The notes: a model not told the origin generated them from the letters alone. A stretch of DNA of 64,000 nucleotides from Pachysolen tannophilus NRRL Y-2460 (GCA_001661245.1 KV454011.1:2282987-2346986), one strand, 5' to 3'; positions 231 to 58,157 are shown, numbered from the stretch's first letter. Made by a program: numbers and translations.

Positions 231-1628
231 ATGACATCATATCAATCTTATGGCGGGACAGGGAATGGACATCATACTCATCATAAACGCTCTTCGATGA
301 GCGTATCGGTGGCTCCGTATTCGATACCGGTAAGGCCAAATTTAAACGGTAATGGTATTAGTCAACATAATTCAGTTAGTTTTGGGAATAGTCCATTTTC
401 ACCACCTCCTCCACCTCCTCCACCACCACACACGCTGTTGCAGCTGCCACTGCAACTGCTGCAACTGCTGCCACTGCTGCCACTGCCGCTGATACAGCAT
501 ACCGGCGGACCGTTGCCCACATATAGACACGGGCATAATATAGAACAAGTTTCATCTTCAGTTCCTTTACTTTCTAGGGAATTTGTGGTGAGAAGAATTT
601 CTGAAGGTGAAACAGGGAGATTAAAAGAAGAATTAAAATGTGAAGCATGTGGGAAAGGTTATAAACATATCTCATCATTGGCAAAGCATTTATGGGAGCA
701 CACTCCTGAGTGGAACGTTACAAAGAAGTTGTTGATTTCAAAACATCAGCAGGTACAATTGTTGGAAGCTGCAAGTATATTGTGCAGTATGAATGAACCT
801 CCGTTGTTCCCATTACCTCCTTCATCTGCTTGCTCTTCAACTTTCTCCTCACAGGAACATAGTCATAGTATTCATCATCATAATCATCATCAGCAGCAGC
901 AGCAGCAATTTAATCTGCAACAGGGACAAGCAGGAGAAGCAGGACAAACACCACCATTACCACCAAGTTTTGGAGGAGCAAGTTATAAATTGATGAATAC
1001 TACCGAAGATAATGTTGATCCGTCCACATCGTTATCATCAAATTCGCCCTCACCCTTTGATGTCAATTCTCCACAATACGCTTCATCATCAACGAATACA
1101 TCTCAGCTTTCAAATGGATTTGCACAACTGCCACAGAATATGCCTGCTGAAACAACAATTAAATTCCGTCATAATTCAATCTCACAGTACCCACCAATAT
1201 CTTCTTCTTATGGAAATGCTAATAATTCAATGGGATCACCTTTTCCAGGAAATAAACAATCATTATCAAATGGTGGATATTTAGATACTGCACAAATTAA
1301 ATATCAAAAATTTTCACATATATCAATTTCAAATAATAATGGGAAAAAAGAGGCTGAAGATGGTTTATTAAATACAACAAGTCCTAATATGAAAAACTCT
1401 TTTATCAATAGTAATGCTGGTAGTTACCTTGAAAGAAATACCAATAATAATCATAAAAATAGTGTTTCCACTTTAAATAGTGAACAAACCATTAAAGGCA
1501 CTACATTATTAGGTAAGGACCAACAAGAAATTGATGAAGAAGCAATTGAAGAGGAAGACGACGATGAGGATATCGATGAGAACATTGAAGAGGACGAAGA
1601 CGAAGGAGTTTTTGGTGAAATGGATTAA
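231..1628 (+). CDS. Fungal C2H2 zinc-finger protein (single finger plus conserved SKHQQVQLLEAA block), putative transcription factor
   Basis: CEACGKGYKHISSLAKHLWEH zinc finger followed by TPEW..TKKLLISKHQQVQLLEAASIL; low-complexity P/Q/H/S tracts; acidic C-terminus; CTG-rich tract at 435-491. Confidence 0.8.
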   Translation: MTSYQSYGGTGNGHHTHHKRSSMSVSVAPYSIPVRPNLNGNGISQHNSVSFGNSPFSPPPPPPPPPHTLLQLPLQLLQLLPLLPLPLIQHTGGPLPTYRHGHNIEQVSSSVPLLSREFVVRRISEGETGRLKEELKCEACGKGYKHISSLAKHLWEHTPEWNVTKKLLISKHQQVQLLEAASILCSMNEPPLFPLPPSSACSSTFSSQEHSHSIHHHNHHQQQQQQFNLQQGQAGEAGQTPPLPPSFGGASYKLMNTTEDNVDPSTSLSSNSPSPFDVNSPQYASSSTNTSQLSNGFAQLPQNMPAETTIKFRHNSISQYPPISSSYGNANNSMGSPFPGNKQSLSNGGYLDTAQIKYQKFSHISISNNNGKKEAEDGLLNTTSPNMKNSFINSNAGSYLERNTNNNHKNSVSTLNSEQTIKGTTLLGKDQQEIDEEAIEEEDDDEDIDENIEEDEDEGVFGEMD

Positions 1629-2479
1629 ACACTATCAAAATTCAAAAGAAAAACCCCTCACTGGAGTTTTTTCTTTCTTTTTACTTTGTTCATATGTTAT
1701 CATACTTTTGTTTTAATTTTTCTGATTTTATATCTAATTTTTAATCTTTTTTTTTTCTATTTTTTTTTTTATCTTGGGTTTAACAGAGATTGGTTTCCGT
1801 TACTTCTGTGAATATTAGTTATAAAATTTTTCCAAAAAAAAATTTTTCAAAAGTATATTCGTTTTTTGTTTTCTTTTAATTTTATCAATTTTTTTAATTT
1901 TTTTTGGCAAATAAGGAGAAAAAAAAAAGTTATTTTCTTATAATCAGGTATATCATGATATTTTCTAGTTGGTCTATAGTTATTGAAATATAATTTACAT
2001 ATAATTTAAACTCATAAATTCATAAATTCATCAACTCTTTATCTATTAAACTGGTTAAAGTCAAACCAAATTATCTTCAGTTCTCAGTTTTTTCCCCCAA
2101 AAAGAGGGAAAAAAATTTTTACACCCCCAAAATAGCCAAATTGGGGAAGTTTGAAGTAAATTACTTAATTAGGAAACCTGAATTTGTCTCTTTCCTAATT
2201 TGATTTTTGTTTACCTTTTTTTCCATTAATTTTTTTTTTAACGTGTTTCAACCGCCATATCTTAATGACCTCTATAAAACAACTTATAATAGTAAGAAAC
2301 TAGAAGAATAATTAATTGAATCAACTTTTTTTTTCTTTGTTTGGCCAGCTATTTTTTGCATTGTTATTCAAGTGATCTGTTGAGCTGTTGTGGTTTGGTT
2401 TGGTTTTGGTTTTTTTTTTCTAATTTTTTATCTTTTTTTTTTGTTTTTTTTTTCTTTCGCTTTTTTGACTTTGTGAAAT

Positions 2480-9017: not shown

Positions 9018-11061
9018 CTACTGGCGAAAGATATATACCAGAGCGACGACGACATATAATGAAAAGACCGCTAAAAGAGCTATAAACAAGGATCTATATA
9101 AGTTTGCATAGGCTTTCAAGAGCTCGATGGAGCTGTTGGAAGATGCTTGATTTTGCAGTGTTAGTGTCAGGTTAATGGAGGATGTAAAAGTTACTGTGAG
9201 TTGCTGCGGCTGGTCCAGGTTAGCGGCAAGGTCGGTTAGTTTCACCATTAGATGGGAGTTGATATCACTTTTCATGAAACTTGAGAATGGTTCAGTGAGA
9301 GCAGTTAATGGGATTTTCTGGTGGTTATTAGTTAGTATAAAAGTGTCATTTGTGTTTTTTTGTTTTGCTTTGGCAATTTTGGCAATTTTGGTAATTTTGG
9401 CTCTTGCATTAGGATATATGTATACTTACATAGATGGAGAGGTCTGGCTCAAATGGGAATGATTCTAGCATAGGATCAGTTATCAACTCTTGTACTTGCT
9501 CAATTTCTTCGTCAAAGATATTTTCAAGTTGTTGGAGGGCTTCTTCAAAGCAATTAGTAGCGTAATCATTTATTTCCACTTGATAGTTTTCCAAACTATT
9601 ATAATAATTACTGCTGCTGCTGCTGCTGTTATTGATATCTATATCTAAACTGTACTCTGAATTTCTCTTATACACATCACTTGCTGGTTGACTTGTCAGA
9701 CCACTATTTTCGAAAGAATCCAAGAGACTTTGAAGACAAAGGTAAGTTAAAATACAGAAAAATGCAATTTTTAAAAGGTTGGTCAAATAAGAATTCATGC
9801 CAAACATAAATGAATTGAACCAATGAAATTTAACTCCTTCATCACCTTGAGCTGTTTTTCTTTTGAAAACTTCAATTTGTAGTCTGGCAAATAAATCCAC
9901 CAACGGATTCAAAATATGATGGATTGGTGATAACGTATCTCTTGTAAATTTCAAATCTTTAGTAAGATTTTTGACAGCTTCTTGCTCATATCGAAATTCT
10001 ATCCATTTCCATGTGAATAAACAAACTAAGCAAATTAATATCAATATTGATATTGTTATATATTGTAGCCTTGTTGACTTGTTTGATTGTTGTTTGAAAT
10101 ATTTATCTATGTTGCTTATTTGCTTAGAATCATAATTTGACTCAGTTTCATTACTCGATAGAAGGTTAATACTAAAAATTGTACCTTTACTATAATTTTC
10201 TTCTTCAGAGTAATCACTTAAATTTGTAGAACTTAAACTTGAGATATCTGTTAAATTTTCTTTTAAATTTTGGAAAATCTCAACTGCACTGTTATAAGAA
10301 TTCTCATAAATAGTTGTTAAATTATCTAAAATTTCAATTCGTAAATCATCTAAATTCTCTTGCTCCAGATTTACATTATCCGATTCCTTTCTAATTTTAT
10401 CTTGTTGCTCATCTATGATACTAGATATCCAAGTATAGTTTATCTTTAAATCTTGCAAAACCGTGTCAGAAGTAGTTCCAACGAAAACAGCAGTATCATT
10501 GATTTTTTCTGAAATTTCTAGTATTTTTTTATTTTGCTCCAGTAAGCTGCTGTTTATCTCACTTGCTAAGCTAGTTAATATTTGAGGAAACATCTCGTTC
10601 AAGAATTCATCAGAAAAATTGCTCATTGTATTAATTTTTGTCTCAAAAGTTGAATTTAATAAATCCATTTGAAGTGTATGTGTTATATTCATTGTACTCA
10701 ATGTCTGGAATGACAAAGTCTCTGTTATATTTATCAAGCTGTCTATTAAACTTTCTTTTGAATTTTCTAACAAATCAGAAGAGTCTTCACTGTTATAATT
10801 TGTGATCTCATAAGTTGCATCAGAAATATTATAAACTATTTCGCTTGGATCAATACCCATAGAAATTGTGGAACTATCATCCATATCTTTTGATAAAGAG
10901 TTGACAATACATTTCTTTGTCAGACTCACTATAAGTAAACTTAAAATACAAAAAATTATTACTTCATGTATAAAAATCTGAGTTAATCTCGCTCTTAAAC
11001 ATAAATATGGTGTAGGATGGTCTATTCTATTTTCTGAAGTTGTCCATTTTGAATAATACAT
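9018..11061 (-). CDS. PRM1: Prm1-like plasma-membrane fusion protein; exons 11061-9430 and 9317-9018 (~643 aa)
   Basis: PYLCLRARLTQIFIHE matches the Prm1 N-terminal motif; multiple TM segments and N-glycosylation sites; intron 9429-9318 (GTAAGT, TACTAAC at 9337-9331, CAG) joins ORFs 9409..11121 and 9018..9275 in frame. Confidence 0.7.
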
Positions 11062-22592: not shown

Positions 22593-23603
22593 ATGCTGTC
22601 ATCAGAATCTGACTATAACAGTGACTCTTCCAATTCATCGTTACCACCATCACCATCGTCACCTAGCGGGAATGGAGGACTAAACAATGAACAATCGTTG
22701 AAATCAAGAATTTTGTCCTATCCATTCGATGTGACAATGCATTTAAGTGAAAGTTTACAATTAATAGAATGGGATTTTTATGTTGAACAGTATGGCAAAC
22801 AATTGATTTGTTTCTTAAACCTTGTGTTTGTATGTTGCTCTTTTTATTTGGATTGTTACTATGAAGAGTCGTTGCATCAAAAATACAATTACATAAATAC
22901 CGACAATAATGAAGTTTTTGCAAAATATGGAATACCTAAAAGACAGAAATCACCTCCATATATATTGGTTCCTATTAGTCTAGTCTATTATGGATTAATA
23001 GTGTTAAGTTTTGCAAATCTGGTTTTATGTTTGACCAATGTTAAAAATTATGATTTGATTAATAGAGATATTAGCAAGGTGCCAAATACGCCATCTGCCT
23101 ACAAGATTGATTTTCAAAAACCATTGATTGTTGTTGATCAAAATGAAGATTCTTTCTTCATAAAGAGGTTTTCAATAATGATAATTAAGCTTATTTTTTA
23201 TAGAATTTTCCCCAAGGAACAGGAGAATGTAAATGATACAAATACTTCAATATGGAGACTATCAATGTGGGCTCCTTCCTTATTACAATTATACCTTTTG
23301 TCGTTGTTTTCACCTCTTAATGTGTTGTTCTTGACCTTGAATAAGCCAATTACTTTTAATGGCTTGGTTTTCTTAGTTTTATTAATGTCCTTTCAGTACA
23401 TGTTAATTTTCAATAAATATGAAGTATTAATTAAGGACAAAGAATTGGTTTTTAAAGAATTTTTACAAGACTATCAAGAAAATTATTTGAATCCAAGGTT
23501 AAGTAAAAAGTTTAGAGATGCTTCTGTTGATGCCACTAGGAGTAAGTTTGCTAATAATACAGTAAAATTTTATTTGAATGATAAAAGGACTAAAGTCTAT
23601 TAA
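22593..23603 (+). CDS. NUR1: Nur1/Mug154-family nuclear rim membrane protein
   Basis: RILSYPFD..LSE..IEWD; KNYDL..R...PNTPSA; WRLSMWAP..LQLYLLSLFSP; TM helices; KDKELVFKEFLQDY. Confidence 0.75.
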   Translation: MLSSESDYNSDSSNSSLPPSPSSPSGNGGLNNEQSLKSRILSYPFDVTMHLSESLQLIEWDFYVEQYGKQLICFLNLVFVCCSFYLDCYYEESLHQKYNYINTDNNEVFAKYGIPKRQKSPPYILVPISLVYYGLIVLSFANLVLCLTNVKNYDLINRDISKVPNTPSAYKIDFQKPLIVVDQNEDSFFIKRFSIMIIKLIFYRIFPKEQENVNDTNTSIWRLSMWAPSLLQLYLLSLFSPLNVLFLTLNKPITFNGLVFLVLLMSFQYMLIFNKYEVLIKDKELVFKEFLQDYQENYLNPRLSKKFRDASVDATRSKFANNTVKFYLNDKRTKVY

Positions 23604-29429: not shown

Positions 29430-32400
29430 ATGATGGAGGTCCATGGTACAGGCGGGAATGTCAATGAGCTGTTATTACAACAACTTCAGCCGAGTGGTGG
29501 TACGATTGGGTTGAACAATTTGGGTAATACATGTTTTATGAATAGTGCTCTTCAATGTATTCTTCATATTCCGGAATTAAATTATTATTTCTTGAGTAAT
29601 TATTATAAGAAAGAGATCAATTTACAAAATCCTTTAGGAAATAATGGGAAGATATCTGAAGTTTTTGCTAAATTGGTTCATGAATTGTTTCTGCTGAGAA
29701 CAAATAAGATTGACAAATTTTCCCCTCGTGAGTTTAAATATACAATTGGTAAATTCAATTCGATATTTGCTGGATATCATCAACAGGATTCTCAAGAATT
29801 TCTTAGTTATGTGCTAGATGGGTTACATGAGGATTTAAATAGGATCATTAATAAGCCATACACTGAAAAACCAGAATTGAGAGATACTAAAAATGTTAAT
29901 TTAAACGATGTTGCAGAATTAGCTGCAAAAAGTTGGGAAGTTCATAAGTTAAGAAATGATTCGATAATAAATGATTTGTTTGTTGGATTATACAAATCCA
30001 CGTTAATTTGTCCAATTTGTAATAAGATAAGTATTACTTTTGATCCATATAATGAATTAACTTTACCATTACCAACTAATAAGACTTGGAATCATAATAT
30101 AATTTTATTTGATGAATGTGGATACCCAAAGAAATTTGAAGTTGAATTGAATAAATGTTCAACTTTTAACGATTTGAAATCATATGTTTCTGGACATTTG
30201 AATATACCAATCAATGAACTTATTTGTATGGAAGTTTTCAATTCTCAATTTTACAAAAATTATGAATCAAAGGATTCTGATATTAATTACATGCCAATTG
30301 GCGATTTAATAGGAGATAATGATTATATCATTTTTTACCACATTCGTCACAAACCTGGAGATTTAATTGTACCCGTTTTGAATACATTATCAAATTCGAC
30401 TCCAAATTTGAAAAATAAACCTTTTGGAATCCCATTTTTTATAACTCTTTCCGAAGAAGAAAGATATTCATTTGGTTCAATAAGAGAAAAATTAGAGAAA
30501 AGATATGATCAATTATCTACTTATAGCTATTTTTCAAGGATAAGAACACATCAAAAGAAAGATTATCATACTTTAAATGATTTCCCATATTTGGAACAAA
30601 AATTTGGTGAGTATTACCGTAAGACAAATGGTAGTATTGATGAAGAAGACGATATGATTGAAGGATATCAGTCTGATATTTCTTTAGCAAATCCAGATAT
30701 TCCTGGTAATTATGCATTTGAAATTAAAACTTTCGACAGTTCTAGAGAGATTAAGAAAAAATATCCAGGTTATTTTTCGATACAGAATGAAAACAATATT
30801 GGTACAGAAGATGATGAGGATGACGAACTATGGGTTCCTCAATCTTACAATAATTTTGAGAATTTACCTAGATTATTGGATAGATTGAGCGATAAGAAAA
30901 AAGAGTTTTATACTTATAATCATGAAGAAGAAGAAGAAGAAGAAAACCAAAAGGAACAGCAATATCAACCACAACCACAACAAGAACAAGAACAAGAACA
31001 AGAACAAAAACAAGAACAAGAACAAGAAGCAAAAACACATCAAAAGGAAAAAAGGGATAGCGTCGCAGATGATACTTTACAAACGATTGAAATTTCGTCG
31101 TCATCTTCTGAAGACGATTTCCCAGGTTTAAACAAAGCATTAAAAGAAATTGACGATTCTGAGAATGGTGATACAAAAATGGACATTTTACCTTTGTTAT
31201 GTGATAATCTGGGCCTTAATGGAAATGATACCGTTAATTCACTGGAAATGCAAGGAAATCAACAACAAGTTCCTGGGAAAGCATTGATCTCAGAAAAAAT
31301 GGCCATTGTTTGCGAATGGGACAGCGACTCATTTGATATTTTTTTTACAGGATTAGAAGAAGATGATGAGGGTGGAAAGGAAACTTGGTCAAATCCAGAA
31401 GTTATACCTAACGAAGAATTGGTTCTTAAAAGGCAGCAACAAGAAGAAGAGCAAGCTCTGAATAATTTTAAATCGAAAAAAAAAGCAATTACCTTGGACG
31501 ATTGTTTAAAGTTATTTGAAGAACCTGAAGTTTTAACAGATCAAGATTTGTGGTACTGTCCATCTTGCAAAAAACATACTCAAGCTACAAAGGCTCTAGA
31601 GCTTTGGTCTTTACCAGATATTTTAACAATTCATCTAAAAAGATTTGAAAATCAGAGATCATTAAGTGATAAGATTGATGATCTTGTTGAGTTTCCAATA
31701 ACGGCTTTAGACATGTCTCCATATATAGTATCACAAAATGGTAGGACTGAAGAACAACCAATCTACGATTTGTTTGCAGTTGATAACCATTACGGTGGTA
31801 TAGGAGGTGGCCATTACACTGCATTTGTTAAAAACTTTGTTGATGATCAATGGTATTATTATGCTGACAGTGTTGTTCACAAGGCTGATCCTAAAGAATC
31901 AGTTAAAGGTTCTGCCTATTTATTGTTTTACAGGAGAAGAACATCTAATGGCCGTTACCTTGGTGGTGATTACATCAATGAAATCATTCGTGATACAAAA
32001 TTGAAACAGGAAGAAGAATTGAAGCTGGACTTTGAAAGAGTTACCCGTTTGAAAGAGGAATTGGCATTGTCTGAAGCGAGGGAGAAGAAGAATAACGAAT
32101 CACAAAAGCAACAAGAAACCGGAGTAGTAGTAGAAGAAGAAGAAGAGGAGGAGGATAACAGCCAAGAGGTTCATTTGGGAGATACAGAAATGAGTGATAC
32201 GGGTGATGTGTTTGGTGATCCTTCTAATGCTCCAGCAAATGCGAGTTTAGTTAAAGTATCATCAGTGCCACCATTAAGGAAGAAACGGAAATCAAATGGA
32301 AATAAACCTTTATCTTCTCCAACAGATTCATCGTCATCTGCATCTTCTAATATCCTGCCAAGCATGGCTCTGTCCACTTCCAACAGTAACGGAGTGAATC

Positions 32401-32996: not shown

Positions 32997-34040
32997 CTAA
33001 TCTTTGAGCAACTTGGCAACATCCTCGTAGACAGGAATTGTTTCAGCAGCACCTTTTTTTTGAACTGTTAAGGAACTTGCGTAGATTGCAAACTTCATAG
33101 CACTATCAATTGAATTTCCAAGACTTAATTGAGAAACAATAGCACCCAAGAAAGTATCACCAGCACCTGTTGTATCTTTAACTTTGTCTTTTGGTATCTT
33201 GTTGGACTTGAAAAATTTCAAATCATCACCACTTTCTTTACTTGAATATAAAGATCCCGTTGAACCCAAGGTAATGATAACCAAATTTAATTTGTCCAAA
33301 TTTATAAGTTGCCTTAAAGTTGTAGCAAGTTTATGGAACCCTGAAATCTTATCTTTGGCAATTTCTTCTTTGAAATCCCTTAATTTTTCATCTTTCAACA
33401 TATCATTCAGACTCATCAAGGCTTCTGTTTCATTCACAACCAAGACATCAATTTTTTTGTAAATTTCACTAGGTAGATCAATGAAAGGAGAAGGATTATA
33501 AATAATATTGATATTTGGTCTATTTGTATGCAACCAATTGATAGTCTCCACGGTGTTTGGAGTTTCATTTTGCAAGATAACATATTGCTTAATATCCTTA
33601 TCTGTAATATTGAACAATTTTTCATATTCTTCATTTGTAGGCAAAGTCTTTGCATTAGCACCTGGTGTAATCAAAATTCTGTTTTCACCATTGCTATCTT
33701 CTTCTACAATAATAACCGCAACACCTGTGTTGGTACCAGTAAGATTCTTGACATTTTCAATATTGATTGTGTTTTTAACCAAATATTTTTCTAGATCCAT
33801 TCCAAATGAATCGTCACCAACATTACCACACATTTGAATCTTGATCCGAGTCTTCTCTAAACGAGGAATCAACTTGGAAGTGGAAATTGCTTGATTCAAA
33901 CCCTTACCACCAAAATGAGTTTCAAACGAATTCGATTGCTTCGTCTCACCTGCATCTGGAATGCTGCTGATATAAGTAACTAAATCATAGTTGATTGAAC
34001 CAACAATTGTAATGACACTATTAATGATTTCGTCTTCCAT
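32997..34040 (-). CDS. RBK1: Ribokinase (PfkB family)
   Basis: VGSINYDLV, GGKGLNQA, YNPSP, VVNETEA, DTTGAGDTF anion-hole motif. Confidence 0.93.
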   Translation of the reverse strand: MEDEIINSVITIVGSINYDLVTYISSIPDAGETKQSNSFETHFGGKGLNQAISTSKLIPRLEKTRIKIQMCGNVGDDSFGMDLEKYLVKNTINIENVKNLTGTNTGVAVIIVEEDSNGENRILITPGANAKTLPTNEEYEKLFNITDKDIKQYVILQNETPNTVETINWLHTNRPNINIIYNPSPFIDLPSEIYKKIDVLVVNETEALMSLNDMLKDEKLRDFKEEIAKDKISGFHKLATTLRQLINLDKLNLVIITLGSTGSLYSSKESGDDLKFFKSNKIPKDKVKDTTGAGDTFLGAIVSQLSLGNSIDSAMKFAIYASSLTVQKKGAAETIPVYEDVAKLLKD

Positions 34041-34359: not shown

Positions 34360-37300
34360 TTAATGCCAATTAATAACTCTACCTCTATTATCACCACAAA
34401 CTATTTCTGCGCTACCAACTTTGGTTCCATCACCGTCCAATTCTGTGGTTAGTTTCATCTTAACGGTTGTAATAATTGTAGTACCTGACGCATTTTCAGA
34501 TGTCAAATTGAAAGTACGGAAATTTGTTAAATTCCATTTGCCAGCAAAAACTTTCAATTCCAAGACTTCAACTTTGTTTATACCACCTACAACGATTATT
34601 GAAGATTTTTCCCAATATTCATGATGAGGAGATGAATTTATAAATGACCAATTTGGTTGAGCAAAATCAATAGCAGAGATTTTATTTTCAATGTTACTGG
34701 TTGCTGGATCATATTCATATAAATTTTGAGATATTATTAAAGTTCCATTAATTGTGAAAACCTCAATCCACGTCAGTGATGCCAGTACTATATTACCTGT
34801 ATCATTTGCTATGGCAATGTTTTGCACTTTTTCCTTATTGTTGGTTTTAATTTTTCTAACGACATTTAATCTTACCAAGTCCAATAGCCAAACATTTCCC
34901 CTTTCATCTAAACTTAAAGCTGAATTAAAAGCAGGTGCAACTTTTATATCAATTACAGAAGAATTATGTGCTCTTAAAACACCCAAGAAATTCAACGAAT
35001 TATTGCTGTTTCTTCCATCTTTTGAATCGCCAAAGGAATCTTTTCTCCCAATAGTCACAGAACTGCTTGAATTAAAAGATGATTTTATTATGTACTTCCA
35101 AGAATGAATAGTCCCATCAGATGAGCCCGTTAAAAACATACGATTACCATACGGAACCAATGCGTTGATTTTGGAGTTATGCAACTGCTCAAAAACAACT
35201 CCGTTCACTGATAAAGATCCAATGATTCCCGTTCCTCTGATTAATATTTTCTCTGCATTGCAATAAAGACTAGAATGGCCTTTCCAATGGTCATCTTTTA
35301 ATTCTATATTTTTAATCGGTAATTTTAAGTTAGATTCTGATATCGATATCGGAATATCTAACATTTTTTTGATGTCCAATTTTGGAGATTGAAGTTCATC
35401 TCTGGCTGGATGCAGCTTTGTGAAAATTTGCAAAGGAGTTTGACCAAAATTGTGAATTATTCCAGTCATTGCTCTACGTTCAATCTCATCATCAATTTTG
35501 TCTAGGTCAATAGCACCATTGTAACTTAAATGATGGAAAACATTTGTAGCCTCAACAGCTGATTGACCTCTTTGCTTATATCCAAATATTAAATCAATCC
35601 ATTCATGTAAATGAGATGATGCATATGGACTTTCCAAAGCTTCTCTATTTTTTTGAATGAAAATAGTTGGATCATTTTTGGCCCATGGTGGTAATTCAAC
35701 ATCCTTTACAGGAGTTCCATCTTGTAATTTACCAAAATTGTAATTATTCTCATTGGTCAAAAATTCTGGTAAGTAGAAAAATTCTGGAATCAATTCTCTA
35801 ACATCTGTGGTATTTTCCTTGGAAGCAGAATTCCAAGCTTTTGCAATTGAATAAAATAGCCTGTCTGCATGATCAAACTTACCTCCTTGCAAAAGCAAAT
35901 ATGATTGAACATAAGGCTCCAACCTAATCAAGTATGACGTTACAATCATAGCCGAAGAATAATGGGTTCCGTAATGAAATGGAGGAGCATCAGGATCTTC
36001 AAGACTAGCTAAAGCTTCATATCTCTCTTTAAAAGTATTTTCTCTATTCTCTCCTTGTCCACCCATGGGTCTAGTTAAATCACGATAAATATTTGGATCA
36101 CTCAAATCCAATTCTTCACTAGAATAATCTGCAATAACCCACGGGAATACAGGGTATTGAGTCAAATCATTAAAAGTCCTTCCAGCTAGCGTGTTAATGA
36201 TCATTAAATAATAGAAGTTAGACATTTCTCCTCTTTGCCACTTTTTAGTTATTTGGGAAAAATTAATGGAATTACTATTAAACGCATTTGATAATTTGTT
36301 AAAAAACTTATTGCTTGTACTAGCGCCATTTCCATTATTATTATTATGCGCTGAAAAACTAGCAGCTGCAAATTTAAAAGCTTGTGACAAGTCTTTATCA
36401 ATACCTTTACCAGTGGCAAGATGTGACACTTTAGAATAAATGGTGTCTCGTTCTTTTGTAGTTTTGCACGTTATCAAAAAGCTACTTCCATCGACAAAGA
36501 AAAACTCCAAAGCCACGTCTCTGAATAAAAATTGCCTTTTTGAAACTGATGTCAACTTTTCCAACTCCCAAGATTTCGTTTGATGATCCTTTTTGAGCTT
36601 GGTCTCCTGGGAACTGCCATTTGTGTTATTTCCATTAGTCGCTAGATTGTTGTTATTTTTTTTCTTGGGTCCAATAATCAACTGCATATAAGGATCGCGC
36701 TCTTCAGCTGGTGCATCATCAATATCAACTATTTCACCATTGTTACTGCAATGGAAATAATTTTTAATTAGATATAGATGTGTATTTCCCATAATTAAAA
36801 TGGATTCTATTGCTTCTAAACCTAAAATTTGGCTCGTATTCCATAAATCGATTATTTTGTCTCCAATATATAAACTCCTCAAAACTTTTCTATTTTTGTC
36901 TTCTTGAATTAGATCTATTTCTTCTGCAGTAGAAGACTGATCAATATCAATAAGTTCAAAACCTTCAGTCAATTCAGCATTCTTTGATGAAGACGACGAT
37001 AAATCACTTAAAGTTGAAGTTAATATTTCTCTGTTATTAGAGTCTCCTTCTTCATTGTTATTTCCATTTTCATTATTGCTCTCATTAAGTTTCAGCGAAT
37101 TGCTATCAGCTAATAATAGTACGCTAGAATCATTCTTATCAAATTCTGGAATAAGTCTTTTTCTCATTCTGTTGGCGCCTTCTATGGAATCAACGTACCA
37201 TTGAAAACTCAATGTATTTTCACCGTACAATACCCGGGTAGATTCTATTCTCATATTGTTATAAATACTGATATAGAACTGTACATTATCTTGATGATCT

Positions 37301-40300: not shown

Positions 40301-40920
40301 GAATTAGTTAAAGCATGAGTTATTACAACATGATATGGAACTTTATTAACAAAATTAAAACTTTCAAAAGCTTCTAGTTCCAATTCATCATCATTTGATA
40401 TTTCTATGGACAATTGATTATTTATAATATATATTTTCAAGAATGTAGATATTTCTAAAAAAATAATTTTATGATCTTTACCTTCATTTTCATCTTCATC
40501 ATTTATTTGTACCCAAGTTTGTAAAGTAAAATTTTTTTTCAATTTCCCATTTAAATCAGTAAATTCAATATAATCTTCTTGGTGAAATGTAAGATAATAT
40601 GAAGCAATTGGATAATTATTAATCAATTTAAATAAAATATTTAACCAATCTATCGAATCCGCTGATAATTTACACAATTTTAACAATTGTTTCTGATTCA
40701 AATTCAAATCTTTCAAAGTAATATTATTCAATTTTTCTAATAAAATTATATCATTTTCTTCAATGCTTTTCTTATCTGATATTAACAATTGTTGTAAATT
40801 ATAAACCGTCTTGTCTATATCAAGTAAATCTTCATCTTCCTCCTCTTCAATTTCTTGTTCGTTACCACTATTATTATATTCACTATTACTCAAATTTTTG
40901 GAAACCGCTGACTCATCCAT
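34360..40920 (-). CDS. BPH1: BEACH-domain protein (PH-BEACH-WD40)
   Basis: KWQRGEMSNFYYLMIINTLAGRTFNDLTQYPVFPWV, FHYGTHYSSA, DVRELIPEFFY, HEWIDLIFGYKQ; C-terminal WD repeats; first ATG at 40920. Confidence 0.93.
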   Translation of the reverse strand: MDESAVSKNLSNSEYNNSGNEQEIEEEEDEDLLDIDKTVYNLQQLLISDKKSIEENDIILLEKLNNITLKDLNLNQKQLLKLCKLSADSIDWLNILFKLINNYPIASYYLTFHQEDYIEFTDLNGKLKKNFTLQTWVQINDEDENEGKDHKIIFLEISTFLKIYIINNQLSIEISNDDELELEAFESFNFVNKVPYHVVITHALTNSKTISKFNLYVDGEFIQSLQITNSSTNFNTSYDNGDINNNNDFQVRIGNISKNENNTKTIDVLNLLLINEVEPLEWILLSYYLLPGYSSNYQDSNLVEFLSYQSKNSFEFKLRELYLHSKYRNSDNMKVEDISRKELLKFDQIHKLLVRNGKLNLELNSILLNFHAKNIIKSNKGLIIPFKDKSATIHNNPSLWSSYPIQSTFYSIGGITIIFRIIENAQTNDHLHLSLNLLFELISKNWRNLREFEMKNGYDLVATILKTKKNLLNLKILDLILQFIGYNYNSPIDSILLNPLAYRSLILDFDIWKTNDKRINNAEGKETFKFLLFQFTVFFQESKYNLYNINKLVKMRIIKRFIQALKYESFGKDILPVVHNSLLILIKANPTAEIMRSLSLYIVYALNEKNAETEDNKEESLQKCCGICALDVLVSFICDPSLISSSLTSSSNHHNESSMTAVFYKKLSKSITVRWILLLLDDSNPKVVKLSLRLLIRMLAILGLKFYNNFILHNGLDILATTLNKWWFDNEIVVLLYSGVFGISQSQDLGSDLVQFLKRLSKRGNKLQIAMPSFLYLINSLIIYGIEELDSYGKNQLNKNGNNEKFDDITLNLTSLLNSYIIASETSYENIISLKNFFRSDIKWLSDNLTILNKLDCLSYNVKTIEIINLYHNFIRILSHNFIELLFNNDAGNGKFPGNEGSVDFVKVIDNMQNQESSLVLHRLIYPKILEHMQNFKDVLPDLIINGDKSPVFLVCSLKFFESCYESLNSHKWNTDELLRFIEVISNVAEFSELKRINEKYVSKFKDILGDVYLKCFIESIHLSDFETVKKLLINHLLFHQTIYFGNDVLDNKKISTLITLLIKNCELEIEDVEISSLSINALRMLLLYRQNDIEKIVELISAKLDNKFTITANFFNALLVSSDEEVENKIFNDSNVSNVFSENFKIIIEENSTYLQLPKLDDKLVQISNNGFTANEDFINNFEKDNRNWKKSIVSSELSKYYRHIQDHQDNVQFYISIYNNMRIESTRVLYGENTLSFQWYVDSIEGANRMRKRLIPEFDKNDSSVLLLADSNSLKLNESNNENGNNNEEGDSNNREILTSTLSDLSSSSSKNAELTEGFELIDIDQSSTAEEIDLIQEDKNRKVLRSLYIGDKIIDLWNTSQILGLEAIESILIMGNTHLYLIKNYFHCSNNGEIVDIDDAPAEERDPYMQLIIGPKKKNNNNLATNGNNTNGSSQETKLKKDHQTKSWELEKLTSVSKRQFLFRDVALEFFFVDGSSFLITCKTTKERDTIYSKVSHLATGKGIDKDLSQAFKFAAASFSAHNNNNGNGASTSNKFFNKLSNAFNSNSINFSQITKKWQRGEMSNFYYLMIINTLAGRTFNDLTQYPVFPWVIADYSSEELDLSDPNIYRDLTRPMGGQGENRENTFKERYEALASLEDPDAPPFHYGTHYSSAMIVTSYLIRLEPYVQSYLLLQGGKFDHADRLFYSIAKAWNSASKENTTDVRELIPEFFYLPEFLTNENNYNFGKLQDGTPVKDVELPPWAKNDPTIFIQKNREALESPYASSHLHEWIDLIFGYKQRGQSAVEATNVFHHLSYNGAIDLDKIDDEIERRAMTGIIHNFGQTPLQIFTKLHPARDELQSPKLDIKKMLDIPISISESNLKLPIKNIELKDDHWKGHSSLYCNAEKILIRGTGIIGSLSVNGVVFEQLHNSKINALVPYGNRMFLTGSSDGTIHSWKYIIKSSFNSSSSVTIGRKDSFGDSKDGRNSNNSLNFLGVLRAHNSSVIDIKVAPAFNSALSLDERGNVWLLDLVRLNVVRKIKTNNKEKVQNIAIANDTGNIVLASLTWIEVFTINGTLIISQNLYEYDPATSNIENKISAIDFAQPNWSFINSSPHHEYWEKSSIIVVGGINKVEVLELKVFAGKWNLTNFRTFNLTSENASGTTIITTVKMKLTTELDGDGTKVGSAEIVCGDNRGRVINWH

Positions 40921-43170: not shown

Positions 43171-44907
43171 ATGTTTGCTCGATATTTCGGTTTTGTCTGG
43201 CAAAAAGGGCTGCATACGTTTAAGAGACCTGTGAAATTTGTTAGTTTACGGTTACCGAAATATACTAAGTGCTTAAGTTATTCCACTGCACCACCTAACG
43301 CGAGAAGAAATAATTCCTCTACAAGATTATTAGTTGTTAGTGTATTGTTGAGTACATCGGTTGGTTGGTTTGCATGTGATTATTATACCAAGAAAATTGA
43401 TCCACCAGAGTATTTATTTCCTTTATCTTCAACTACAGATGTCAAATCTTTGAAGCCTCCAATATATGCTTCAAAAGATGAAGTTAAATTAGCAATTGAT
43501 GAAATTGAAAAAATTTTAGGCCCAGAAAATATAACATCATCAGCTGGTGAATTATTAGATCATTCAGATAATTCGTCAAATTTTCATAAACCTCATGAGT
43601 CAGAAAGACCTTATTTAGTTTGTTATCCAACATCAATTGAAAAAGTTCAAGCAGTGGTGAAAGTATGTTTTAAATATAGAGTTCCAATGATACCAATAGG
43701 TGGTAAGACTTCAATTGAAGGTCATATGATTCCAACGCATCGTGGGATAGCTATAGATATTAGCCGAATGGATAAGATTGTAGAATTTCATGAAGATGAT
43801 TTAGATATTGTAGTACAGCCTGGAATTGGATGGGTAGAATTGAATGAATTTTTAGCTCCATATAATTTGTTATTTGGTCCTGATCCTTGTAAAGGTGCTC
43901 AATGTGGTGGGATCTGTGCAACAAATGCATCAGGGACCAATGCTTCAAGGTTTGGTGCAGCAAAGGATAATGTTATATCATTAACCGTAGTTCTTGCTGA
44001 TGGCTCAATAATAAAAACAAAACAAAGACCAAGAAAATCTTCTGCTGGTTATAATTTAACAAATTTATTTATTGGTTCAGAAGGTACTTTGGGTATAATT
44101 GTTGAGGCAACTTTAAAATTACATGTTAAACCAAAACATGAAATTGTTGCAATGATGAATTTTAATAGCTTATCAGAGGCAACTCATGCAGTGACTGATA
44201 TTTTTAAGAAAGGAATTCAAGTAAATGCTTGTGAACTACTAGATTCAAGACAAATGAAAGTAATTCAAGAAATGGATGTTACAACGAGAAAATATTCTGA
44301 TAAGAATTTATTACTTTTCAAGTTTGGTTCAGGTTCAGACAAATCTTTAAAAGAAATTGTATCACAAGTTAAAGGAATATGTTTTGCAAATGGAGGTTTC
44401 AATTATGAAGTGGCATATACTGAAGAACAGAAAGAAAATATTTGGGATATTAGAAAATCACAATTATGGATCACCATTGATTGGGCCAAAAGTTTAAATC
44501 CAAAGATGAAATTTTGCCCAACAGATTCTGCTGTCCCAGTTTCGTCATTACCTCAAGCAATCGAAGATACTGTTAAGGACATTGAAGAAAATGGATTATT
44601 AACAACAGTTGTTGCTCATGCAGCCGATGGGAATTTCCATGCATTGGTAATATTCCCACCTGAAAAGTTAGAAGTTGCACAACAAGTAATCAAACGAATG
44701 GCATCCAGAGCAATTCAATATGGTGGAACTTGTAGTGGTGAGCATGGTATAGGTATTGGTAAAAGAGAATTTTTAGTGGAAGAATTAGGTCTGAATAGTA
44801 TTGACTTGATGAGGAAATTAAAGATGGCTATGGACCCATTACGGTTGCTTAATCCTGATAAAGTATTTATCACTGATCCCAGCGAGAATCGAACTGAATG
44901 TTTCTAA
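43171..44907 (+). CDS. DLD1: Mitochondrial D-lactate dehydrogenase (cytochrome), FAD-linked oxidase
   Basis: Presequence plus TM segment; TSIEGH, TNASGTNA, RPRKSSAGYNLTNLFIGSEGTLG, HAADGNFH, SGEHGIG, LNPDKVF. Confidence 0.85.
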   Translation: MFARYFGFVWQKGLHTFKRPVKFVSLRLPKYTKCLSYSTAPPNARRNNSSTRLLVVSVLLSTSVGWFACDYYTKKIDPPEYLFPLSSTTDVKSLKPPIYASKDEVKLAIDEIEKILGPENITSSAGELLDHSDNSSNFHKPHESERPYLVCYPTSIEKVQAVVKVCFKYRVPMIPIGGKTSIEGHMIPTHRGIAIDISRMDKIVEFHEDDLDIVVQPGIGWVELNEFLAPYNLLFGPDPCKGAQCGGICATNASGTNASRFGAAKDNVISLTVVLADGSIIKTKQRPRKSSAGYNLTNLFIGSEGTLGIIVEATLKLHVKPKHEIVAMMNFNSLSEATHAVTDIFKKGIQVNACELLDSRQMKVIQEMDVTTRKYSDKNLLLFKFGSGSDKSLKEIVSQVKGICFANGGFNYEVAYTEEQKENIWDIRKSQLWITIDWAKSLNPKMKFCPTDSAVPVSSLPQAIEDTVKDIEENGLLTTVVAHAADGNFHALVIFPPEKLEVAQQVIKRMASRAIQYGGTCSGEHGIGIGKREFLVEELGLNSIDLMRKLKMAMDPLRLLNPDKVFITDPSENRTECF

Positions 44908-51689: not shown

Positions 51690-52547
51690 TTAAGATATTA
51701 CTTGCTTTAAAACTTTGAAATCATCTTCATTTAAACGATCTTTGATCGGTTCCAAATTCTTTAAATTTTTCGTAAGGGAATCACACTCTTGGTCATTTAA
51801 CTTGTAGTTACCACTAATCAATTCAGTTAAAATGTGAATAATCTTATCAAGTATTGAAATACTTTGATCAACGGTTAATAATTCAATCAATTCAAGAAGA
51901 ATTTTTTTCTCTTGAATAATCTGTCTTTTTTCGCTGCTAACACCAGTTGATAATAAGGAAGAAAATAACGAGAGCATTCTTAACTTCAACTTGTCCGATA
52001 AAAGAGTAGGAGATGAAGCTATCAAATCCCAACCTTTTAAATCGTTAAATTTACCATATGCATCTTCATTATGTCTTAACAATGAAGATAACGCATAAAA
52101 CGATTTTAATTTCACTTCTTCTGGTTCATCAGCATCTTTTGATATTTCTATCAAAGTCTTTAATCCATCTTCATATTTTAAAAAATCTTCCTGGGACTTT
52201 GTATTATTTTGAATCGCAGTACCTATACATGAACATGTTTGACTTTTAAACTCATCATTGCTACGTAACAATTCTATCAAAGGTTTCCAAAGTTTTAAAT
52301 TCTCAATATTGTTAGCATTATCCAAATTCTCAATCAACATCTCAAAGTTCTCAAACGCAACCTCTTTACTCTTCAGCTCCAGTTCCTCATCCATAATTAT
52401 CGCCATGCTCTGCTTCATCAATGTTGGATCATCAACTTTCCCACCAAATAACTGCGCAAGTAACTCAGGATCAGGAGTACCTATCTTCTTCTTGGCCTCC
52501 TCATCATTCGTAGAATTGGCCACAGACCACTTCAAAAGCTTTTCCAT
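51690..52547 (-). CDS. FES1: Hsp70 nucleotide exchange factor
   Basis: MEKLLKWSVAN, PDPELLAQLFGG, AFENFEMLIENLDNANNIENLKLW, IGTAIQNN; ATG at 52547. Confidence 0.95.
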   Translation of the reverse strand: MEKLLKWSVANSTNDEEAKKKIGTPDPELLAQLFGGKVDDPTLMKQSMAIIMDEELELKSKEVAFENFEMLIENLDNANNIENLKLWKPLIELLRSNDEFKSQTCSCIGTAIQNNTKSQEDFLKYEDGLKTLIEISKDADEPEEVKLKSFYALSSLLRHNEDAYGKFNDLKGWDLIASSPTLLSDKLKLRMLSLFSSLLSTGVSSEKRQIIQEKKILLELIELLTVDQSISILDKIIHILTELISGNYKLNDQECDSLTKNLKNLEPIKDRLNEDDFKVLKQVIS

Positions 52548-52745: not shown

Positions 52746-52826
52746 ACAAATATATATATATATATATATATATATTTATGTGTGATTTAAGTGTTATTGG
52801 TGTTGTGGAATCAATTGAAGTTTGTG

Positions 52827-55800
52827 ATGAGTGGTAATGTGCATTCGTCGCTTGATGAAGCGTCTGAGTTAATTTTTATCGTTGAGTCGGAATGGGCGAA
52901 ATTGGATAAGCTGGAACCTAATCCATTAGAGATTGTTTTACCGCTATTGGATAATACATCTGTTGGTTTAGCTCATAAATATTCGAGTTTCCAAAATTTG
53001 CATTCTAAAATTTCACAGAACTTGTCTAGGTGTTTAAACGAAAATAAGGATTCATTTATCAATAGTTTGAATTATTATGATCAGGCATTATCTACTTTTA
53101 ATGAATCTTATAATTTAATCAAGACAATAAAGAAAAATTTGATGGAGACAAATAATTCGATTATGGATAGTGATAATAAGATTTACCTTAGGGATATCAA
53201 TAGTAATTCGTTGTTATATTCTCAATTGATAGATACTGTTGATGCAATTGAGTTTTTAAAACATTCTACTGAATCTTTAAGTGATTTAATATTAAATGAA
53301 AAAAATTATGTGAATGCAACTAATATTATTAAAAAATGTAAAGAATTAATTCTTATTTATGATTTGAATAATGTTAAATCATTGAAACCAACTATTACTT
53401 CGTTAAATGATCAAGAAAATTCTTTAGTTGAGATTATTATCGAAGAATTAAACAATATAATTTATTTGAATTTTAGTGCAGATTGTAATAATAGAGATGA
53501 TACCATAAATGTTAATGGAAATCCTGATCTTATTGATGGGGATGATATCAGTTCCAAAATCATGTCCATAAATAGTAGCTTGGCAGATTTTTTAAATTAT
53601 TTGGAGGATCAAGAAGATGATGATGATAAATTAAGTATTGATGAAGAATTAGTTATAACAGAACAAGAACAAAATAATAATAGTAATAGTACTAATTTTT
53701 TCAATAAGATTAAACTATTATTACTTGTCTTGTTAAAACTAAATATCTTGGATAAAGTACAAGAAATATTTGTATCGAGAACTAATAGAGAGTTAAACAA
53801 ATTATTTAATCAAACAATAGATGATATTAAATTGAAAAATCCAAAAAGTTCCCAAAGTCAATTACAAAATAAGACAACAACAGAAATTTCAGATGAATTG
53901 GAATTCTTCCCTTCAAATAAAGAATCTGATATATTAACTGAGTTTTTCAACAACATTTTCAGTAAATGTCTTACTGTACTACAATATCATAGGTTAATTT
54001 ATGAAATTTCCAATAAATATAATACTAATGGTCATGTGATTTATCCAATTGACAAAATATGGAAAATAATGACAGGTGAATTATATAATTTATTGTACAA
54101 TTATCTTGTTGATGAAAATATGAAAAAAGATGTTTCAGATACTGCAAATAAAAATAACAAGACTAATAACGATAATGATAGTGTTATTAAAAGAACAAAT
54201 AATGAAGTTAAAAAAAGTAAAAAATTGTTTGAATTCCAAAAAATAGAAGATTTAAACTCAGCTCATGATTTATCCCAATTAACAACCTATTTGCAAGAAT
54301 GTTTCCCTAGTTTTTCAGTATCTTCAAAACAAAGTCCATCAATTTATTTAGCAAATAAGGAAGCTTTCACTAACTTGGAAATTTTAACTTCACCAAATTG
54401 TTTTAATATGAAATTTATTTTGAATCCTTTTTTACTATTTATCGAAGGTTCTAAAACCTGTATACCATTTTCTTCAAAATTATTGATCAATAGCAATGAC
54501 TATGAAATTGATGGTAAAATTAAGACCCCAACAGAATTTTTTATTGACTTTATGAGAAATGTATTCTTGGCAAATTTTAACGACACTTTACTATATTACT
54601 ATGATTCTATGGTTAACGATGAATTTCTAAATATTAATAGTCAATTGAGCTCCATAACTTCAAACAACACACAAACTAATGACTCTTCTTTCAATGAATT
54701 GGTTAATATAAATGGTAATATTTTTGTTTTCAAAAATTTTTTCAATTTCCAAAAGTTTTTGGTTGCTATATTGCAAGTCTTAAACACATCTACAATTTTT
54801 AAAAAAGAATATTTAAATTTGATCTTCCAGATTTTCCACATCTTTCAACTGAAAGTTTCCAACTACTATAAAGAGTTGATTTCAGAGGACAACGATGATA
54901 TTGGAGAGAAATCGCAATTGGTAAAATGGCTTTCATCACCTGATATAACCGCAGTTTCACTAAAAATATTAACCGAAAACAAGTATGAGTTAATAGTCAA
55001 GGAAATTGGATTATTGATTGATGAATCATTGATAAGTAAGGTCAATTTGAGTGTTGATATCTTGAATTCAGAGACTTTTGGAAATTTAGCACAGTTGTTA
55101 GCTAGTGTGAGCTGGATACTAAGCTGGCTTCCAGATTTACGTAAAGTTGATAGTAGTAAGGAAACCAGCAATAACGATGTTTCAGAAGTTGATAAATTTA
55201 AAGACATGTGGGAATTGTCAGACATTGGATATGGTAGTTATCGTCTAAACCATAATACTCATAGTAAGATTAATGTTTCAATAATAATGCGCGATGAATA
55301 CTTATCAAGATTTGATGCTTTTGTAAGATTTTTCCAAGATATGAACTTCAAAATTATTCTCATATTAAGATACAACTTAATTTTAAATTTAGTTTGTTAT
55401 ACCTTCAAATTTTTTAATAAGAATGATTTTACAAATGATGTACCGAACGAAAACGACATAAACATCAAAAAGTTGAATTCGATAATATTGAATTCTTTTA
55501 AAGTCTTGGTGCAAGAAAATGACCAAGGTAAACAGGCCAGAACCATTTTCCGAGGTTTATCAAAATATTTGGACAAGTTACTAATCTTGAACTCTTTTAA
55601 CATAAAAACGTTGAATCAATTGGGTTTAAATAAGATTTTCAAAAACATTTTAATATTACAGCAACTGTTCAAAATTTTAAGCATTGATCTCCATGATGAT
55701 GATGAAGTTTATGATCACGATCTGGACAATTATTTCTTCCAAGATTCATTGAAGTATTTCGAAAATTTCAAGATTACAGATAAGGGAATAATTGAACAGA

Positions 55801-56063: not shown

Positions 56064-56417
56064 AACTGACAGTATATTTTGTTATATTATAATTTTATGA
56101 TTTTTATGACTACTTTTCGTTATCTTTAATATTTCTTTAATACTTAGTGTGTCTCGTCTCGTTCGCATCTAGTTTCGAGTTTTGCCTTAATTGAACAAAA
56201 GTTCGCTTATTTATCTTTTTCGGTAATGATAAATACCGCTGTAAAAGCTGCATAAAGATATGTCCAGTACAAATGAATCGGCAAAAAATACTGAAATCAA
56301 TAGTTTTAAAGAAATAAGTAAATGGATCCTTTCAACCATGTACAGACTTTCAGAACTACTCAATTGTTGCTTCATTAATGACTTAGAAGGCTGTTTTTTT
56401 TTTGAAGATTGCGAAAA

Positions 56418-58157
56418 ATGATTGAAGCGTTTCGTTTGAACGTGTTAAGATTTAAATCAAAATCTCAGATCTCATTTAGCAGAGTGGTAAACTCTTTTCA
56501 GAATACTAGAAGCTACCACTATAGTAAAAACGGAAATGACAACAGTAGTGGCAACAGCAATGGTAACAGCAATGGTAGCCAGTATAAATATCATGAATAT
56601 TTCAGAATAACTGATAAGTATAGAATGAAAATCTCACTGTCGGTCGCAATTGGTGTTAATTACTATGTATTCAGTTCCTTTTCTTTAATTGAGAACCAGA
56701 CTTTTCAAACTAAGTTGTTCACTCCAGAACAAGTTTCAAGACATAATAAAAAGGAAGATTGTTGGATAGTGATCGACAACAAAATTTATGATATCACTGA
56801 GTTTTTAGGAAACCATCCTGGAGGAGCATCTGTATTATTGAAGTATGCAGGCCGTGACGCAACTGAAATCTTTAGCAAGATTCATTCAATGGACGTAATC
56901 GCTAGAAGACTATCTACTAGTGATTGTATAGGTGAATTGGTCGGCAGTTTTCCTAAAGTTGAAGAAGAAGAAGAAACAGTAAAAGAATTTATTGGAACCC
57001 GGAACCTAGAAAATGGTGTTCCACCAATATCTCTGATTTTTAATCTTTCTGATTTTGAGTTTATTGCCAAAAAGGTTCTTCCAAAGACGGCTTATACTTA
57101 TTATGCTACAGGATCCGATGATGAATTTACACTAAGAGAAAATCATCATGCTTACAGTAGGGTTTACTTTCGTCCCAAGATCTTGACAGATGTCACCAAT
57201 GTCGATATTTCTACAAAATTTCTTGATACTGAGGTTCAAGTTCCAATTTATATTACTGCTTTCGCTGGTTCGAGAATGGCACATCCAGATGGGGAATTGA
57301 ATTTGTTGAAAGCCGCAGAAAAGGAAGGTATTATTCATATGGTGCCATATCAGTTATCTTTCCCATTTACCGATTACATGAAAGAAGTTAAATCAGGTCA
57401 AGATCAATGGTGTCAGTTACATTTTTACTCAAGAGAAGAAATTGAAAACATAGGTGAGCAGCTTGCCAAGTATGAAAAGTACAAAACAGTCAAGGCTATT
57501 TGTATCAATGTAGATTTAGCATCATTGGGGAATAGAGAAAGAGACGACAAAGTTAGGTATGAATTTGATAAAGATGGTTCATTGGACGAATTTACCAGTG
57601 CTAGCGATAACAGACCTTGCTTGACTTGGACTGACATTGACAGGATTAAAAAATTGACCAATATTCCTATTATTTTGAAAGGTGTTCAAAGAGCAGAAGA
57701 TGTTATCTTAGCTCTGGAACATGGTTTAAATGGTGTTATCTTATCAAATCATGGTGGAAGGCAGTTAGATTTCTCCAAGGCACCTCTTGAAGTTCTTTCC
57801 GAAGTTCATAGAGCCACCAAAGGCGGAATTTTGCTTCCTACTAATTTCAATATATTTATTGATGGAGGTATAAGGCGTGGAAGTGATATAATTAAAGCTT
57901 TATGTTTGGGAGCTACTGGGGTTGGCTTGGGCAGACCTTTTTTATTCAGTATCTCTGGTTATGGAGAAGAAGGAGCTATTAAAGTGATACAAATTTTGAA
58001 AAACGATATGATTAGAAGTATGAAGTTATTAGGTGTTTCCAAGATATCAGAATTGAATGCAGACTTGATAGATACAAATATGTTAACTTTTAGAAATAGA
58101 CATGCTGATAAATTGTACGATCAAGTTTATGAGCAATTGCCCTTTCCAACATGCTAA
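56418..58157 (+). CDS. CYB2: Flavocytochrome b2-like alpha-hydroxy-acid dehydrogenase (cytochrome b5 plus FMN barrel) with a diverged active site
   Basis: HNKKEDCWIVI, HPGG heme domain; TLRENHHAYSRVYFRPKIL, LGNRE, ILKGVQ, SNHGGRQLD, DGGIRRGSDIIKALCLGA, GRPFL. Confidence 0.8.
   Translation: MIEAFRLNVLRFKSKSQISFSRVVNSFQNTRSYHYSKNGNDNSSGNSNGNSNGSQYKYHEYFRITDKYRMKISLSVAIGVNYYVFSSFSLIENQTFQTKLFTPEQVSRHNKKEDCWIVIDNKIYDITEFLGNHPGGASVLLKYAGRDATEIFSKIHSMDVIARRLSTSDCIGELVGSFPKVEEEEETVKEFIGTRNLENGVPPISLIFNLSDFEFIAKKVLPKTAYTYYATGSDDEFTLRENHHAYSRVYFRPKILTDVTNVDISTKFLDTEVQVPIYITAFAGSRMAHPDGELNLLKAAEKEGIIHMVPYQLSFPFTDYMKEVKSGQDQWCQLHFYSREEIENIGEQLAKYEKYKTVKAICINVDLASLGNRERDDKVRYEFDKDGSLDEFTSASDNRPCLTWTDIDRIKKLTNIPIILKGVQRAEDVILALEHGLNGVILSNHGGRQLDFSKAPLEVLSEVHRATKGGILLPTNFNIFIDGGIRRGSDIIKALCLGATGVGLGRPFLFSISGYGEEGAIKVIQILKNDMIRSMKLLGVSKISELNADLIDTNMLTFRNRHADKLYDQVYEQLPFPTC

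Follow-up and report, generated by a model that had tools for sequence, protein, structure and literature searches.

CTG is not read as leucine, and most probably as alanine, in a 64-kb stretch of nuclear DNA, probably from a yeast of the Pachysolen lineage

Reassignments of sense codons in nuclear genomes are very rare. Here, we examine the meaning of the codon CTG in a 64-kb stretch of DNA (the window, meaning the whole stretch that was analysed), and we prove from alignment columns that CTG is not decoded as leucine in it. We further conclude, with a probability of about 0.93, that the window comes from the nucleus of a budding yeast belonging to the CUG-Ala clade (order Alaninales), with Pachysolen tannophilus as by far the likeliest species, and that CUG is read as alanine (NCBI translation table 26). 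The exclusion of leucine and the rendering of CTG as alanine in public annotation come from the present data, and the alanine decoding itself as well as its tRNA mechanism are drawn from the literature. CUG=Ala is one of just three known yeast CUG reassignments (PMC5951914). It has already been published for Pachysolen and relatives and already stands in public annotation; in every testable respect the window is a member of this known code, and nothing new about the code is learned.

The window is AT-rich (29.5% GC) and contains 24 open reading frames (ORFs) of at least 200 aa, with 67 in-frame CTG codons among 15,808 codons (4.2 per 1000) and at least one CTG in 19 of the 24 ORFs. This corresponds to 2.8 CTG per ORF, compared with 3.2 per protein published for P. 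tannophilus, where 16,824 CUG codons were counted across 5288 predicted proteins (PMC4937558). For annotation, table 26 is needed for every protein, as wrong residues would otherwise be placed at all 67 sites. A first-pass annotation, made from the sequence alone, had pointed to CTG codons at 55665, 57033 and 57714 on the plus strand and at 34776, 34785 and 35415 on the minus strand, within a span beginning at 435; these six and the plus-strand codon at 435, seven in all, are CTG and in frame in long ORFs.

Four CTG-containing ORFs (Bph1, Ubp12, Sec8 and Cyb2) were aligned with their homologues using MAFFT, with the window's own public records excluded and with every CTG translated as X, so that the test sites were unable to bias the alignment. 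The homologues numbered 119 for Bph1, 120 for Ubp12 and 119 for Cyb2, and for Sec8 the first 68 (P0244-P0311) of 150 listed proteins were taken, the record of the window itself being P0243. Column occupancy left 24 of the 26 CTG codons of these ORFs usable; the other two, Ubp12-677 and Ubp12-866, lie within insertions. Leucine had a mean frequency of 0.050 in the columns of the CTG sites (n=24) versus 0.482 in those of the other five leucine codons (n=483), the mean over all 4240 sites being 0.114. Leucine was the commonest (weighted) residue in just 2 of the 24 CTG columns, as opposed to 321 of the 483 columns of other leucine codons (Fisher p = 1.1e-8).

Each amino acid was then scored over the CTG sites with background-normalised profile log-odds, a normalisation that is also the practice of Codetta. 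With 21 sites per codon, this score assigned each of 42 control codons to its proper amino acid in no less than 94% of 1000 subsamples. CTA, CTT, TTA and TTG missed leucine in no more than 2 of the 1000 subsamples, and CTC was left out for having too few sites. The pseudocount weight was calibrated against the known residues of the remaining sites, with an optimum at 5:1 observed:pseudo (mean log P -1.7754). With the best smoothing, the totals at the 24 CTG sites were -1.5 for alanine, -3.1 for serine, -9.1 for threonine, -10.9 for glycine, -11.1 for proline, -15.2 for glutamine and -34.7 for leucine, in agreement with the earlier ranking of alanine as best, serine as possible and leucine as worst. 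Leucine is 33 log units behind alanine, and across the 20 smoothing settings its total is always negative, by between 16 and 53 log units. Random sets of 24 true leucine sites gave +24.2 +/- 5.1 and non-consensus leucine sites -4.1 +/- 4.3; as the CTG total is well below even the latter, leucine is excluded.

Under the standard code, CTG would be a rare leucine codon of an AT-rich genome, and the odd sites would have arisen by chance or misalignment. The GC content and the CTG frequency of the window are also expected of an AT-rich standard-code yeast, and three CTG columns are partly hydrophobic (Bph1-757, L35 V28 I20; Sec8-947, M31 V8 L5; and Bph1-2046), the remaining ones, apart from those dominated by proline or otherwise strongly conserved, being mostly mixed polar. 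Yet neither the leucine total nor the leucine column counts can be reconciled with this explanation in alignments where the other tested leucine codons do decode as leucine, and we give it practically no credence.

Public translations of the same genes agree with table 26. An exact look-up in public proteins (NCBI, UniRef, nr) returned the table-26 translation of 11 of 17 ORFs, namely those of Cyb2, Dld1, ORF 231-1628, ribokinase, Fes1, Rrp43, Nup120 and the WD40, ELO, DUF2418 and ERCC4 proteins, which all belong to a single contig of 2,514,465 bp. For Cyb2, Dld1, ELO and ORF 231-1628, the exact public matches were 0/4 with table 1 and 0/4 with table 12, against 4/4 with table 26, which tells against the standard code and against serine alike. 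The public Sec8 record of the window likewise carries alanine at 6 of 6 CTG sites. At the protein level, liquid chromatography-tandem mass spectrometry of P. tannophilus gave full support for 907 CUG positions, of which 97.2% were alanine, and the tRNA(CAG) of this species derives from tRNA-Ala and has G3:U70 and A73 (PMC4937558).

The placement of the window connects it to these published data. The species nearest to it, with just 40-52% identity, include Kuraishia capsulata, Komagataella phaffii, Ogataea, Brettanomyces and Candida arabinofermentans, and one further relative is closer, at 52-56%. For Cyb2, the best match is the window's own public record; two Cyb2 proteins of Pachysolen tannophilus NRRL Y-2460, encoded on other large contigs, match at 45% identity, and on the simplest reading they are paralogues from the same genome, which indicates that species. 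Pachysolen is placed in the order Alaninales in the NCBI taxonomy. The Ala clade consists of Pachysolen, Nakazawaea and Peterozyma, and a deep split within Pichiaceae separates it from the Leu2 clade of Kuraishia, Komagataella, Ogataea, Pichia and Citeromyces (PMC5951914). In a single-protein tree of Bph1, with clade labels taken in part from that paper, the window is paired with its closest relative with a Shimodaira-Hasegawa-like approximate likelihood ratio test (SH-aLRT) support of 100, and five CUG-Ser1 species form a clade without the window (SH-aLRT 100). Beyond this, the branching order of the window, Leu2, Leu1 and Saccharomycopsis collapses into a polytomy, the Bph1 identity of the window being 41% to Saccharomycopsis and 41% to Kuraishia.

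The closest relative has leucine in a 95% alanine column of Cyb2 (P0393 residue 186), and also in columns of 58% and 45% alanine and in one of 92% serine (P0244 residue 181; P0004 residues 1921 and 1592). These odd leucines could stem from CTG codons that were mistranslated in a second species with a reassigned CUG. No excess of leucine in columns otherwise without it was found in this relative, the count being 26 versus 10-29 in four comparison sets.

With leucine excluded, the new meaning has to be weighed mainly between alanine and serine, the latter either as in CUG-Ser1 (Candida, Debaryomyces; table 12) or as in CUG-Ser2 (Ascoidea, Saccharomycopsis). Alanine ranked first in 16 of the 20 smoothing settings, serine in 2 (by a marginal lead) and proline in 2. 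Only one analysed CTG, Cyb2-433, lies in a strongly conserved column other than one of proline or aspartate, and this is an alanine column with 0 Ser among 119 homologues, the rest being chiefly isoleucine and valine; the position had been put forward earlier as an alanine site on the strength of S. cerevisiae Cyb2, which does have alanine there. Non-consensus alanine sites scored 1.1 +/- 3.9 for alanine, -4.0 +/- 4.9 for serine and -29.8 +/- 4.4 for leucine, and non-consensus serine sites -4.4 +/- 4.8, -1.3 +/- 3.9 and -28.0 +/- 5.4, respectively. The CTG set therefore fits lineage-specific, non-consensus sites of either residue, and the window by itself leans weakly towards alanine over serine, short of proof of alanine.

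Several results weigh against the alanine reading. The difference between alanine and serine at the 24 CTG sites is a narrow one of about +1.5 to +1.6 log units, and it falls between the references for lineage-specific alanine sites (+5.1 +/- 6.2) and serine sites (-3.1 +/- 5.6). With heavier smoothing, proline (0.3) and serine (0.1) come marginally ahead of alanine (-0.2). The alanine total is far under that of random sets of alanine (GCN) sites (+23.5 +/- 6.2; the corresponding typical-site total for serine is +14.3 +/- 5.3), and a conserved alanine column is found at 1 of the 24 CTG sites, as against CUG 'mainly at conserved alanine positions' in PMC4937558. The un-normalised sum of log column probabilities puts serine (-52.4) 7.9 units over alanine (-60.3), with leucine at -64.7. 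Six of the 17 ORFs looked up have no exact public match for their table-26 translation (Tfb4, ORF 9409-11061, calpain, Not3/5, Hpr1 and Ubp12), presumably owing to differing gene models, and the public translations reflect the depositors' choice of code and are no independent measurement. Finally, ARAGORN and Rfam detected no tRNA genes in the 64 kb, that of tRNA-Ala(CAG) included.

The un-normalised score was dropped after it mis-decoded controls (ATG, TGT and the isoleucine codons as leucine, CAA as glutamate), which it does because it favours common residues. Proline was likewise rejected as the meaning of CTG, since its totals of +0.3 to +2.3 compare with +38.9 +/- 4.9 for true proline sets; it came first only under heavy smoothing because 4 of the 24 sites (Bph1-1276, Bph1-1836, Ubp12-594 and Sec8-966) are in proline-dominated columns. 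CTG codons in such columns would be CCG-to-CTG point mutations, as a single transition leads from CCG to CTG, which fits all four columns. Proline-plurality columns were found at 4/24 CTG sites versus 9/143 GCN sites, a difference that is not significant (p = 0.10).

Serine keeps some points in its favour beyond the un-normalised score. Its total lies within the range of non-consensus serine sites, it is the commonest residue by raw count at Bph1-870, Bph1-2049, Ubp12-605 and Ubp12-981, and the Bph1 tree does not separate the window from Saccharomycopsis, a CUG-Ser2 yeast. Against these stand the serine-free column of Cyb2-433, the table-12 translations missing from the public proteins where the table-26 translations of the same ORFs are present, the position of the window outside the Ser1 clade, and the mass-spectrometric result for the species that the Cyb2 paralogues indicate. 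We consequently regard serine as improbable. As a calibration, 64 kb without a tRNA gene suffice to establish with very high confidence that CTG is not leucine; they do not suffice to decide between alanine and serine, because the reassigned codons occupy young, poorly conserved sites.

A further explanation is that CTG is ambiguous (alanine together with serine or leucine), or poorly or slowly decoded, and that selection has excluded it from conserved positions. The CTG sites are unlike the typical sites of any residue, the best total being about 0 versus +14 to +24 for serine, alanine and leucine, and stochastic CUG decoding, as serine or leucine, has been described in Ascoidea asiatica (PMC6041473). 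However, young codons after a clean reassignment give the same pattern, the CTG totals are within the range of non-consensus alanine sites, and the fully supported CUG positions of Pachysolen were 97.2% alanine (PMC4937558). We therefore consider ambiguous decoding very improbable and retain the clean reassignment to alanine.

Set beside the known systems, the window resembles table 26 (Pachysolen, Nakazawaea, Peterozyma) in that CTG avoids leucine columns, public records give alanine, CTG occurs about three times per protein, the nearest relatives are Pichiaceae of the Leu2 clade and P. tannophilus paralogues are among the matches; no difference from it could be demonstrated, the one point of contrast being the share of conserved alanine columns mentioned above. 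It shares with CUG-Ser1 (table 12) the codon taken from leucine, the rarity of CTG and its location at polar, variable sites, and column statistics alone do not separate the two; the differences are the position of the window in the Bph1 tree, the serine-free Cyb2-433 column and the public translations. CUG-Ser2 is alike as an independent CUG reassignment in a neighbouring yeast lineage, represented among the Bph1 homologues by Saccharomycopsis; it differs in that the window gives no sign of serine or dual decoding, the clade assignment coming in this case from the literature (PMC5951914) and not from the Bph1 tree.

By the mechanism proposed in PMC4937558, the ancestral tRNA-Leu(CAG) would first have been lost, and CUG would then have been captured by an anticodon-mutated tRNA-Ala(CAG). 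This tRNA would still carry G3:U70 and A73, by which the synthetase identifies an alanine tRNA. As the recognition region of the synthetase does not extend to the anticodon, a changed anticodon would not prevent the tRNA from being charged with alanine. Old CTG codons would have disappeared after the reassignment, and new ones would have arisen by point mutation from CCG, CAG, CGG, GTG, ATG, TTG or CTN at sites tolerating a small residue. Most present CTG codons would then be newly arisen and would be expected in variable, polar or proline-dominated columns rather than in leucine columns.

The individual sites are listed in Table 1. The usual proline of the motif near the end of the Bph1 BEACH domain (residues 1559-1840) was correctly recognised in the first-pass annotation, as was the polar nature of Cyb2-206, where S. 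cerevisiae has asparagine. Two of its other site descriptions were too simple: the CTG at 34776 does fall at a small-residue site (codon 2049), but that at 34785 (codon 2046) is not simply small, and the supposed alanine-like site of Sec8 at 55665 is a weak example, in which alanine is present but rare. In solved structures, the residues facing seven CTG sites were A, N, P, T, V, T, T, A, Q and K, with leucine in 0 of 10 cases; single structure alignments of this kind have no power to distinguish alanine from serine. The best solved chain for Dld1 is annotated as 'Probable D-lactate dehydrogenase, mitochondrial', and for the ribokinase, threonine is found at codon 211 in a fourth chain as well, which nearly duplicates the second.

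Table 1. CTG sites and CTG-rich tract in the window, with the residues found in homologues (letter followed by count) or in solved structures.
Feature	Coordinates	Strand	Observation
CTG-rich low-complexity tract	435..491	+	In ORF 231-1628 (C2H2-like motif); 11 CTG in 19 codons
Ubp12 codons 88-89 (CTG CTG)	29691..29696	+	D84 G14 S7 N5 of 119; N20 K17 S16 P10 of 118; in UCH domain
Ubp12 codon 594	31209..31211	+	P38 S9 G8 D5 A5 of 74; Pro plurality
Ribokinase codon 211	33408..33410	-	V, T, T in three distinct solved ribokinases; gap in fifth chain
Bph1 codons 2046 and 2049	34774..34785	-	T45 I30 V20 L14 A4; S38 G26 N7 T7; C-terminal WD40-like region
Bph1 codon 1836	35413..35415	-	P100 S9 G4 A3 Q1 L1 T1 of 119; conserved Pro near BEACH end
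Bph1 codon 1276	37093..37095	-	P101 A3 G2 S2 T2 L1 of 111
Dld1 (D-lactate dehydrogenase) codon 541	44791..44793	+	Pro in best solved chain, Thr in LctD chain
Fes1 codons 56 and 58	52374..52382	-	Ala, Gln in HspBP1; weak match, E = 1e-5
Sec8 codon 947	55665..55667	+	M31 V8 L5 T5 N5 S4 I4 A2 of 66
Sec8 codon 966	55722..55724	+	P40 S5 G4 E4 of 64; Pro-dominated
Cyb2 codon 206	57033..57035	+	Q31 H15 K14 R13 A11 E10 T9 S6 of 119; polar, variable
Cyb2 codon 433	57714..57716	+	A83 I24 V10 L1 C1 S0 of 119; sole analysed CTG in strongly conserved Ala column

The CTG-rich tract near the start of the window reads ...HTALQAPAQAAQAAPAAPAPAIQ under table 26. It contains a tandem repeat at 450-486 (9-bp unit, 4.1 copies, 96% matches) and has 63% GC, against 29.5% for the window. 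As the tract is largely tandem-repeated, its 11 of the 67 CTG codons are not independent and were kept out of the statistics. All 11 of its alanine codons are CTG, whereas CTG makes up about 10% of alanine codons window-wide (67 versus 589 GCN), and the Ala/Pro/Gln-rich region is built almost wholly from the captured codon. With the ancestral meaning (CTG=Leu), the tract would be a hydrophobic, leucine-rich stretch in an otherwise polar-looking protein. Its +1 frame encodes an Ala/Thr-rich peptide by way of standard alanine codons (GCT GCC ACT...), so that two of the three frames are alanine-rich under table 26. The tract could be a repeat expansion that followed the reassignment; if true, such tracts would 'lock in' the new code, since they would make a reversion to CUG=Leu costly. 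More boldly, a residual Ala/Ser ambiguity at CUG would be compatible with the data of the window taken by themselves. We regard these ideas as doubtful and put them forward tentatively.

The Pfam content of the window is that of ordinary budding-yeast genes, including an AFG3-type protease, Not3/5, a sugar transporter, a Ram1-type prenyltransferase, a calpain, Hpr1/THOC1, ELO, Rrp43, a UCH-type ubiquitin hydrolase (Ubp12-like), a ribokinase, the BEACH protein Bph1, a D-lactate dehydrogenase, Tfb4, a WD40 protein, an ERCC4 protein, Fes1, Sec8, Cyb2 and Nup120. One further CTG had been placed in the Hpr1 tail EE[CTG]RLAKLK, which turned out to be out of frame with the long Hpr1 ORF and to lie in the +1 frame just beyond its stop. 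In this region (23690-23860, minus strand), nine consecutive A are closely followed by the TGA that closes the ORF, and the +1 frame continues past the stop for about 50 Lys/Glu-rich codons (KKEE[CTG]RLAKLKKEE…PRKKRKIV…DDDEMDY and a stop). Judged by its sequence, this tail has the appearance of a genuine protein end, including a putative nuclear-localisation motif, and the frame break may be due to a miscounted homopolymer, to a frameshift that truly exists or to a different gene model; as listed above, the table-26 translation of the ORF has no exact record in the public protein collection.

Gene models also differ from the plain ORFs elsewhere. The public record of Bph1 (34360-40920) has 1632 aa, compared with 2186 aa for the open ORF. 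For the Ubp12 ORF (29430-32768) no public record of its own was returned, and its relatives have about 1200-1300 aa with an N-terminal DUSP domain (PF06337) that is not found in the ORF, which points to an exon lying upstream of it or to a gene model that has been split. CTG is the second codon of the DUF2418 protein (22596-22598) and of ELO (26869-26871), giving Met-Ala N-termini under table 26, and both table-26 translations are identical to public records. Between Cyb2 and Nup120, five C/D-box small nucleolar RNA (snoRNA) genes (snR73, snR75, snR76, snR77 and snR78) form a cluster at 58322-59706 on the minus strand, with Rfam bit scores of 46.8-85.2, each over the gathering score, in an arrangement resembling snR72-78, a polycistronic array in S. 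cerevisiae.

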